Shown in pieces: positions 13,650-13,676 of a DNA stretch of 44,207 nt. The first letter of the stretch is position 1. Each line of letters opens with the position of its first letter. Source of the DNA: a virus (taxonomy: Duplodnaviria; Heunggongvirae; Uroviricota; Caudoviricetes); IMG/VR virus record IMGVR_UViG_638341086_000016; one strand, 5' to 3'. Both the position numbers and the translations under genes were made by a program. The notes under the pieces were generated by a model that was not told the origin of the DNA, did not search any database, and was given only the letters and a program-made list of their open reading frames with translations.

Positions 13650-13676
13650 AAATAAAAAAACCGCCGCAGCGGTTCA
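13650..13676 (-). terminator. terminator-like hairpin AACCGC-CGCA-GCGGTT plus U-run between terminase and capsid genes
   Basis: Same stem sequence as the hairpins at 5937 and 27764; followed on - strand by TTTTTTTATTTTCAGGAGGCTGAT-GTG. Confidence 0.5.

Follow-up and report, generated by a model that had tools for sequence, protein, structure and literature searches.

Predicted terminator-type hairpins of two kinds, one in an IsrK-like small RNA and three in the late operon, in an EHEC-type lambdoid prophage of Escherichia coli

Four short hairpins in an EHEC-type lambdoid E. coli prophage are probably intrinsic terminator-type signals of two kinds. One of them (S3) is the predicted terminator of an IsrK-like small RNA (sRNA), while the other three (S2, S4 and S1, in the order of transcription) lie within the Q-dependent late operon, ahead of the protease-capsid, major tail and tape-measure genes, respectively. 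The stretch of DNA analysed here, referred to below as the window, comprises 44,207 nucleotides (IMG/VR record IMGVR_UViG_638341086_000016). Its initial annotation, made from the letters alone, described the hairpins as a single family of near-identical elements whose structure is probably under selection and which may serve as read-through terminators under Q antitermination or as processing or translational-coupling elements.

The head region of the window is 97-98% identical to that of the 'PPompW' prophages and of many Stx1a, Stx2a and Stx2c converting phages; for the Stx1 prophage of EHEC Sakai, the identity of this region is 97%. According to PHROG scans, the minus strand carries the genes from ~32 kb down to 0.3 kb. 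In order, these are NinB, a methylase, a NinE-like ORF, two antirepressor-like genes, NinG, a NinI-like phosphatase and Q, followed by a 616-aa ORF, lysis genes, TerS, TerL and a protease-major capsid fusion, and then by the portal, connector proteins, tail terminator, major tail protein, chaperones G and T and the tape measure (Table 1). The identities of the tape-measure, protease-capsid fusion and major tail genes had been correctly given in the initial annotation. A strong tR'-like terminator marks where the late, Q-dependent transcription unit begins, to which S2, S4 and S1 belong; these three hairpins are downstream of Q, the STnc100 leader and the tR'-like terminator, all on the same strand. 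A promoter scan of the window predicted no strong minus-strand promoters across the head and tail genes, TerS included. S3 falls outside this unit, upstream of Q.

Table 1. Hairpins, genes and RNA elements discussed in the text, with their positions in the window
Feature	Position	Strand	Remarks
S1 hairpin AACCGC-UGAG-GCGGUU	5944-5959	-	Gap between T and tape-measure gene
S2 hairpin G-AACCGC-UGCG-GCGGUU-U	13658-13675 (motif 13659-13674)	-	Gap between TerL and protease-capsid genes
S3 hairpin AACCGC-GCUG-GCGGUU, then U7	27772-27787	-	Terminator helix of predicted IsrK-like sRNA
S4 hairpin CCCGC-CGCGU-GCGGG	7392-7406	-	Gap between tail-terminator and major tail genes
S2 tail and leader	13637-13660	-	U7 (13660-13654, first two U paired), A, U4, C, AGGAGG
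Post-capsid hairpin GCGGGA-N10-UCCCGC	11684-11663	-	44-nt gap right after capsid stop codon; without U-run
Q	24376-24864	-	PHROG scan
TerL	13700-15361 (stop at 13700)	-	PHROG scan
Protease-major capsid fusion	11699-13636	-	PHROG scan
Tail terminator	7436-7780	-	PHROG scan
Major tail protein	6653-7369	-	PHROG scan
Tail chaperone T	5968-6249	-	
Tape measure	2678-5920	-	PHROG scan
Antirepressor gene Ant	26925-27602	-	
tR'-like strong terminator	22926-22908	-	Downstream of Q and STnc100; d-score 47.4
STnc100 leader	22951-23137	-	Rfam scan
tR2-like terminator	29901-29880		d-score 25.0
Further predicted terminator in late unit	20754-20730		
IsrK-like sRNA gene (27841-27767) with promoter-like site	27767-27877	-	
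C4 a1/b1 target elements	27854-27802	-	50.6 bits; overlap 5' part of IsrK
C4-type antisense RNA	27740-27656	-	RF01695, 75.1 bits (gathering score 45); immediately downstream of S3

The motif AACCGCNNNNGCGGTT (AACCGC-N4-GCGGTT) is found three times in the window, at S1, S2 and S3, which confirms the reported three copies of one 6-bp stem with different loops; its expectation is 0.01 (mean of dinucleotide shuffles), and none of 100 shuffles reached three copies. Exactly seven A residues precede each of these copies on the plus strand, so that the minus-strand RNA reads AACCGC-loop-GCGG-U7, with the loops UGAG in S1, UGCG in S2 and GCUG in S3. The A7 tract had been ascribed to S4 as well, where the run is A6. 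Stems of S1-S3 consist of 6-7 bp, including four G-C pairs, and are capped by tetraloops (the S2 helix has six Watson-Crick pairs and one G.U pair, and its loop is of the UNCG type), whereas S4 has five G-C pairs and a 5-nt loop. Thus, the four hairpins have stems of 5-7 bp, loops of 4-5 nt and U6-7 immediately 3' on the gene strand, within the bounds used for intrinsic terminators, i.e. a GC-rich stem of ~5-12 bp, a loop of 3-8 nt and at least six U residues directly 3' of the stem (U7 in S1-S3 and U6 in S4, on the minus strand, which is that of the flanking genes). The plus strand has no T-run at S1-S4 and these sites are therefore not bidirectional.

Downstream of the U-run, S2 has the Shine-Dalgarno (SD) sequence AGGAGG (13647-13642) followed by a 5-nt spacer and the GTG start codon at 13636. 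At S4, the U6-AUUAUC leader precedes AGGAGG (7379-7374), which is 4 nt ahead of the ATG at 7369, and at S1 the U7 tract is followed by ACGCCC-GGAG-AAAGGUGA and the ATG at 5920, with a ribosome-binding region of the form GGAG..AAGGUGA ahead of the start codon. A U-run followed at once by a strong ribosome-binding site, initially described for all the hairpins, is indeed present at S2, S4 and S1; S3 has a C4-type RNA gene downstream and lacks such a site.

The core hairpins have folding energies of -7.1 (S1), -8.9 (S2), -8.5 (S3) and -7.5 (S4) kcal/mol, and the extended S2 hairpin reaches -10.2 kcal/mol. In a self-written terminator scan that used the d-score of d'Aubenton-Carafa (1990), all four scores were positive (S2, 32.8; S4, 20.4; S3, 18.0; S1, 2.5), the score of S1 being the weakest and barely above zero. 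Local folding z-scores relative to shuffled sequences were between -1.8 and -2.1 for S1-S3 and +0.1 for S4. Since these values are weak and S4 is no better than the shuffles, energy alone provides no evidence.

Sharing a stem does not appear to make S1-S4 one repeat family. At least 120 viral contigs contain the motif AAACCGC-N4-GCGGTTTTTT, representing 86 or more unique sites. None of the 86 unique sites listed has a window-like context, and the loops among them are UUCG in 40 of 86 cases, the rest including other UNCG or GNRA types, a composition typical of generic terminators. Next to the loop, the most frequent stem 4-mer is CCGC, accounting for 21 of the 101 hairpin-plus-T6 elements in 772 kb of unrelated phage DNA, a crude background drawn from fetched viral loci and not de-replicated by lineage. 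With 21% of background elements carrying it, a CCGC core in 3-4 of the ~11 sense-strand terminators of the window is not surprising, and the shared stem, with other short terminators as the null, is unremarkable.

Comparison of sister E. coli prophages leads to the same view. Two alleles are found at the S1 site, AACCGC-UGAG-GCGGUU, as in the window, or AACCUGC-UGUG-GCAGGUU, in which each arm has one extra base and the two extra bases are mutually complementary; one further variant has a C to U change that yields a U.G pair. Altogether, ~40% of the sister prophages carry, ahead of the tape-measure gene, a stem unlike that of the window. Among the 21 sister prophages in which the S2 and S1 sites were both readable, the S1 allele was independent of the S2 and S4 sequences; hence, the identical stems in the window are merely one allele combination. 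Likeness between the copies ends at the A/T tracts, i.e. after ~21 nt. The idea of one near-identical family had to be given up, as the stems vary independently in sister prophages, are replaced in other genera (see below) and recur in unrelated phages.

Two specific origins of the copies were considered and rejected. Neither common descent of the copies nor gene conversion among them is supported, given that the S1 alleles assort independently and the flanks are unrelated. A dispersed repeat (REP/BIME/MITE-like) does not fit either: identity ends at the A/T tracts, and the positions are fixed while the stems change, with no co-variation between sites.

S3 differs from the other hairpins in its surroundings. 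In the Rfam scan, the segment 27841-27767 of the minus strand matched the isrK family (RF01394) over the full model (positions 1-77) with 76.6 bits, compared with a gathering score of 50, and the S3 hairpin aligned with the third (terminator) helix of the model. A promoter-like site, TTGACG-18-TATATT (27877-27848), which agrees with the consensus at 10 of 12 positions and is a consensus match only, places the start of the RNA near 27841. Downstream of S3 come the C4-type RNA and then Ant, whose start codon at 27602 is the next one, 170 nt from S3; no ribosome-binding site adjoins the hairpin. The sRNA element is in the early-right (nin) region, between the ninE-like ORF and the Ant genes. S3 is therefore assigned, on the strength of these matches, to the predicted terminator of an IsrK-like sRNA within an immI-like C4/antirepressor module, apart from the late operon, and its description as a late, Q-controlled element does not stand, given its position upstream of Q and the promoter-like site of its own. 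In the same scan S1, S2 and S4 had no Rfam match at the gathering level; against isrK, S1 scored 27.1 bits and S4 18.2 bits, and S2 gave no match at E<=1. The weak isrK-like matches of S1 and S4 seem largely to reflect similarity of the terminator helix.

IsrK of the Gifsy-1 prophage ends at a Rho-independent terminator which, as found experimentally, is read through by part of the transcripts; the read-through product is the isrK-orf45-anrP mRNA, and the short IsrK activates translation of that same mRNA (PMC4825925). By analogy, the window sRNA would be transcribed from its own promoter, most transcripts would stop at S3 and a minor share would continue into C4 and ant. The likeness between the two systems is that S3 together with the 60 nt upstream fits the full RF01394 model, that an antirepressor gene lies downstream and that the helix partly read through in Gifsy-1 is the one formed here by S3. 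They differ in that antQ is upstream of isrK in Gifsy-1, whereas the window element is upstream of the phage's own Q. The module also resembles immI of P1/P7 (C4 RNA, a1/b1 and a2/b2 targets, icd-ant), since C4 and a1b1 adjoin S3 and an antirepressor is encoded downstream; in contrast to immI, however, it is embedded in a lambdoid nin region, and a1b1 forms part of an IsrK-type sRNA that is separate and has its own predicted terminator.

Between TerS and the tail tip genes, only 4 of the 17 junctions have a gap of more than 10 nt (leaving out the apparent G/T gap, which is due to a frameshifted T ORF), and each of the four contains a hairpin. S2, S4 and S1 occupy three of them, namely the gaps of 63 nt between TerL and capsid, 66 nt between the tail terminator and the major tail protein, and 47 nt between T and the tape measure. 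The fourth, of 44 nt between the capsid gene and the next gene, holds the post-capsid hairpin; the Salmonella, Serratia, PAJU2, Burkholderia and Moraxella relatives also have a hairpin at this place. Translational coupling, one of the roles that had been put forward, is unlikely, because the stop-to-start distances at S2, S4 and S1 (63, 66 and 47 nt) are long and a stable hairpin intervenes.

A search of equivalent sites in related phages, the check proposed along with the initial annotation, showed that the hairpins are conserved in position and variable in stem. Among 80 close IMG/VR loci, at least 79 retain the S2 hairpin, with UGCG or UCCG in the loop, an A-U to G-U change in the stem and 6-8 U residues as the variation. 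The more distant set (70-77% capsid identity), which was gathered through a scan of species-representative genomes (at least 11 loci) and exact-protein look-ups, represents Enterobacter, Atlantibacter, Kosakonia, Pantoea, Salmonella, Serratia and Yokenella. At the same junction its members have ACCCGC (or GCCCGC), a UNCG-type loop, GCGGGU, U6 and (C/A)(G/U)UUUC(A/U)GGAGG. In the alignment of the 7-pair TerL/capsid helix, which contains 14 distinct sequences, 100% of the cells are paired, with replacements of A-U by C-G and of A-U by G-U; the double change, A-U in E. coli and C-G elsewhere, concerns one pair and is a single event phylogenetically. The loops (UGCG, UCCG or UUCG) all belong to the RNA-specific UNCG type. 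The columns of the U-run and the SD sequence are invariant, the U-run being the most invariant part. A degenerate prophage of Symbiopectobacterium has both arms with a 24-nt insertion between them.

Farther afield, the TerL/capsid junction of Pseudomonas phage PAJU2 (48% identity) reads GCCCGC-CUAGA-GCGGGC-UUUCUCGUUUCUGGAG, and Moraxella phage Mcat5 (38% identity) has a hairpin and a U-run upstream of the protease-capsid genes. A pre-capsid hairpin with a U-run was absent from the Burkholderia, Ralstonia and alpha-proteobacterial relatives examined. The CCGC core at the capsid site is invariant down to ~48% protein identity. Of 5426 complete E. coli genomes, 1233 contain the TerL/capsid junction with its hairpin, a single genome having it in as many as seven places; many Stx1 and Stx2 converting phages have it too.

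The stem varies at the other two late sites as well. S4 is kept in 79 of 80 close loci (CCCGC-CGCGU-GCGGG in the E. coli relatives). At the corresponding (U/V) junction, the hairpin is ACCCGC-UCCG-GCGGG in Salmonella, CCGGC-CUUG(C/A)-GCCGG in two Serratia prophages, AACCGCC-AACC-GGCGGUU in Kosakonia and CCCGC-CACUGC-GCGGG in Symbiopectobacterium, in every case followed by U5-7 and an SD sequence. Thus, the U/V stems differ wholly (CCCGC, CCGGC, CCGCC), with the U-run and the SD sequence retained. Ahead of the tape-measure gene, Kosakonia has GCCCGC-CGCGC-GCGGGC, directly between T and that gene, and in the Salmonella and Serratia relatives a CCCCGC hairpin is separated from T by an additional, moron-like gene. 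A moron terminator in the sense of Hendrix/Juhala closes an independently transcribed gene inserted into the late operon; because of the additional gene in the relatives, S1 may mark an empty or ancestral moron slot, although in the window no extra gene adjoins S1, S2 or S4. In eight relatives (70-77% capsid identity; ~15 kb each), nearly all predicted sense-strand terminators are at intergenic junctions, most of them at TerL/capsid, U/V and T/H (T/tape measure) and a few after the capsid or major tail genes.

The fully paired cells of the capsid alignment, the complementary insertion in the arms of S1 and the whole-stem turnover at U/V indicate, at the level of aligned sequences, that compensatory change has taken place. 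Moreover, over its 39 nt the cassette ahead of the capsid gene has 67-79% identity with that of the window, compared with 41-52% at the third codon positions of the adjacent capsid gene; for PAJU2 the respective values are 62% and 32%. Purifying selection on the late-operon hairpins at the RNA level is thus well supported by the comparisons, as the cassette is conserved above the third codon positions, pairing is preserved, G.U pairs are tolerated, the loops are of the UNCG type and the polarity is constant. The initial proposal that structure is under selection holds on these orthologous comparisons; the comparison of copies within one genome on which it had been based contains no covariation.

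Read-through termination under Q, as initially suggested, provides the best-fitting reading for S2, S4 and S1, with Q, the tR'-like terminator and STnc100 all upstream, but does not extend to S3. Actual termination at these sites, its dependence on Q and any effects on translation or stability are predictions. A polymerase that had not been modified by Q at pR' would form the GC hairpin in its exit channel and would be released at the U6-7:dA hybrid under that hairpin, the target of such termination being read-in or leaky or spurious initiation in the lysogen. The Q-modified polymerase, on the other hand, would pass tR', the further predicted terminator in the late unit, S2, S4 and S1, so that the whole operon would be transcribed. 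In the read-through mRNA, the hairpin and an unstructured U-rich leader would be left directly ahead of a strong SD sequence, which is probably the reason for the conservation of the spacer.

Termination may, however, be an incomplete account of S2, S4 and S1. With stems this short (core energies of -7 to -9 kcal/mol), the efficiency of termination may be modest, and orthologues in which the hairpin is retained and the U-run is interrupted (Salmonella pre-H, GGGGUUUAAUUUUUU; Salmonella L092 U/V, GCGGGAUUUUU; Serratia/PAJU2, UUUUCUCG) would be expected to terminate poorly. Partial termination lowers the output of capsid and major tail protein, so that in lytic growth the element would be of no use, or harmful, if read-through were not nearly total. 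The conserved spacer and SD sequence and the invariant CCGC core go beyond the needs of a terminator alone, and the promoter scan of the window revealed no excess of internal promoters that would need insulation. It is the degraded U-runs, the conserved spacer and SD sequence, the likeness of the S2 and S4 leaders, the bracketing of the capsid gene and the position ahead of genes for abundant proteins that suggest an additional or different role.

Intra-operon terminators have been recognised in lambdoid late operons, with the comment that 'their roles are not known', and two roles have been proposed for them, partial attenuation or the halting of transcription that lacks the antiterminator (PMC8022706). 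Literature searches yielded no study in which transcripts had been mapped directly at sites of this kind in the late operons of lambdoid phages; the passages of the EHEC Sakai Term-seq study on the 3' ends at tR' (StxS) report nothing for the S1, S2 and S4 junctions (PMC7547250). The closest known case is that of phage L (P22-like), for which Casjens and co-workers described predicted hairpin-plus-U-run terminators between virion modules in an operon served by a single antiterminated promoter and discussed the same two candidate roles (PMC8022706). Unlike phage L, the window has a module of the HK97-type protease-capsid fusion and a long tail, its sites are found upstream of the capsid, major tail and tape-measure genes, the one noted in phage L being downstream of the procapsid module, and the window sites have documented positional conservation across genera with compensatory change; function is predicted in both. 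Phage lambda (tR2-tR4 under N; tR' under Q) likewise has intrinsic terminators within operons that are expressed by a modified polymerase, and the window carries tR2-like and tR'-like terminators of its own (Table 1). To our knowledge, the head and tail genes of lambda have no such hairpins at the U/V or T/H junctions.

Alternatively, the hairpins could act as mRNA punctuation, affecting processing or stability of the read-through transcript without stopping the polymerase, a possibility that we consider unlikely. RNase E would cut the single-stranded U/A-rich tract and the hairpin would shield the 3' end of the RNA upstream of the cut. With a second hairpin after its stop codon, the capsid mRNA would be stable and would decay independently, thereby setting protein stoichiometry. 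Several observations favour this: a hairpin lies on either side of the capsid gene in the window (13659-13674 and 11663-11684) and also in the Salmonella, Serratia, PAJU2 and Moraxella relatives, hairpins survive where the U-run is degraded, the U/A-rich tract beside them resembles RNase E sites and their placement before genes for abundant proteins fits attenuation poorly. Yet cleavage at the hairpins is purely putative, such a hairpin precedes the gene for the low-copy tape-measure protein, and a stabilising hairpin needs no abutting U6-7, which is the most invariant part of the element.

A related suggestion, which we put forward tentatively and regard as rather doubtful, is that the pre-capsid hairpin, U-tract and SD sequence, together with the post-capsid hairpin, constitute a dedicated post-transcriptional device whose conservation spans Moraxella phages, Pseudomonas phages and E. 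coli prophages. If that is true, it would either yield a stable monocistronic capsid mRNA by processing or act at the level of translation, as an operator or a standby site; that it looks like a terminator would be incidental, and similar cassettes would have been recruited ahead of the major tail and tape-measure genes.

Improbable, too, is the view that the selected unit is a translation-initiation cassette, composed of the hairpin, a U-rich standby or S1-binding tract and the consensus SD sequence, which would shield the ribosome-binding site from upstream structure and raise initiation, with terminator likeness secondary. The leaders downstream of S2 and S4 are similar (UUUUUUUAUUUUCAGGAGGC and UUUUUUAUUAUCAGGAGGC), the Enterobacter TerL/capsid and Salmonella U/V junctions, which are non-orthologous, are near-identical over ~34 nt, the alignment columns of the spacer and the SD sequence show no variation, and the conservation of the cassette is comparable to that of the first two codon positions. 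However, S3 has the same hairpin and U7 as a terminator of known type with no ribosome-binding site, the leader of S1 differs, in compact genomes any terminator will abut the next ribosome-binding site, and the effect on expression is purely putative. The leader of T7 gene 10, which has a 5' stem-loop, an AU-rich enhancer and a strong SD sequence before the major capsid gene, provides an analogy only: the order of hairpin, U/A-rich tract and consensus SD is the same, but the T7 hairpin is at the 5' end of the transcript or is an RNase III site and has no terminator-grade U-run, and there is no homology with the window cassette.

A DNA-level element, such as a palindromic protein-binding site, a REP/MITE-like mobile repeat or a recombination linker, is very improbable. 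It would account for arms that form a perfect 6-bp palindrome around a variable centre, for the location at module junctions and for the morons that adjoin the pre-tape-measure hairpin in the Salmonella and Serratia relatives; nevertheless, similarity between copies is limited to ~21 nt, the polarity is constant with the U-run only on the gene strand, the UNCG loops are RNA-specific, G.U (G:T) pairs, mismatches in a DNA palindrome, are tolerated, and the full turnover of stems at fixed positions is the opposite of what is expected of a mobile repeat or a sequence-specific operator. Finally, chance similarity without function, to which the weak folding z-scores and the commonness of the stem would point, is extremely improbable in view of the positional conservation across genera, the compensatory changes and the conservation of the cassette far above synonymous sites.

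Thus, S2, S4 and S1 are, as read here, predicted terminators of a kind already recognised in lambdoid phages, and S3 belongs to a known sRNA family. For annotation, the gain is that an IsrK/C4/Ant regulatory module has been located in an EHEC prophage, together with the caution that recurrent 'CCGC-tetraloop-GCGG-U7' hairpins should not be taken for a repeat family. The head and tail module of the window is very common. Purifying selection on these predicted terminators is of roughly the strength seen at the first two codon positions, which makes S2, S4 and S1 good and well-delimited test cases for the role of intra-operon terminators, be it as insulators against Q-independent transcription in lysogens, as mRNA processing marks or as translation enhancers.

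The capsid gene is followed immediately 3' of its stop codon by a hairpin without a U-run, and hairpins also occupy this position in the Salmonella, Serratia, Pseudomonas PAJU2, Burkholderia and Moraxella relatives; together with the hairpin that precedes the gene, the capsid gene is thus hairpin-bracketed. In PAJU2 (locus L302, 355-405), the 3' arm and tail of the pre-capsid hairpin (GCGGGCUUUCUC) can pair instead with the SD-containing GGAGAGCCCGC, and RNAfold favours this SD-sequestering fold (-19.8 kcal/mol). The alternative pairing, seen in PAJU2 alone, is a possible switch.

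Downstream of the capsid gene, the PHROG 'portal' profile (859 positions) covers two ORFs of 454 and 407 aa (8903-11487, minus strand) that overlap by ATGA. The relatives also have two separate genes here, with the portal Pfam domain in the first only, and therefore the split looks native rather than the mark of a pseudogene.

The nin region holds a complete immI-like antirepressor control module, in which a promoter-like site is followed by the IsrK-like sRNA, the C4 a1/b1 targets, the C4 antisense RNA, Ant, a strong terminator and lastly a second Ant/KilA-like gene. Other features of the window are listed in the table; the terminator at 29880-29901 is presumably identical to tR2 of phage lambda.

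Features of the window and, for the extra genes, of relative loci
Feature	Position	Strand
Weak second hairpin (GUCACGGUGUGAC)	7435-7447	-
Post-capsid hairpin, GCGGGA-N10-UCCCGC	11663-11684	-
Second strong terminator, between 616-aa ORF and lysis genes	20754-20730	-
616-aa ORF, downstream of terminator 22926-22908	20969-22819	-
Late-promoter region	22908-24062	-
Strong terminator, late-promoter region	22926-22908	-
STnc100-family leader RNA, late-promoter region	22951-23137	-
tRNA, late-promoter region	23990-24062	-
Second Ant/KilA-like gene, beyond terminator 26905-26890	26128-26856	-
immI-like module	26890-27877	-
Strong terminator next after Ant, CCCAGC-UUCG-GCUGGG-U6	26905-26890	-
Ant gene	26925-27602	-
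Terminator GGCCUGCUGGUAAUCGCAGGCC-UUUUUAUUUGG	29880-29901	-
Lambda cIII thermoregulator element	36238-36296	+
ALIL frameshift pseudoknot (119 bits), near right end	42020-42136	
Extra gene, T / pre-tape-measure junction	L092 17206-17625	
Extra gene, same junction	L093 17543-18142	
Extra gene, same junction	L094 17261-17860	
Extra gene, same junction	L095 17534-17890	

Two overlapping ORFs accompany the ALIL pseudoknot and, with it, indicate an IS3-family insertion sequence at 41204-42417. Fifteen single N bases (8238, 21219-21481, 28111-28165, 29018, 30467, 30506 and 36712), seven of them clustered within the 616-aa ORF, have the look of bases that were masked or ambiguous; all fifteen fall outside the hairpins.

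Among the tail genes, the weak second hairpin, whose tail is long and rich in U and C, overlaps the tail-terminator stop codon and stands in tandem with the hairpin preceding the major tail gene, which lies 30 nt downstream. Across the hairpin before the tape-measure gene and the 3' end of T (5939-6006, minus strand), a covariance-model search of 1.65 kb gave an isrK-like match below threshold (27.1 bits, E 0.002), which probably reflects mere terminator similarity and chance. At this junction the Salmonella and Serratia relatives (L092-L095) carry an extra, moron-like gene between T and the hairpin, in reverse orientation in L092, whereas the window and Kosakonia have the hairpin alone; the T / tape-measure junction is therefore an insertion hot spot.
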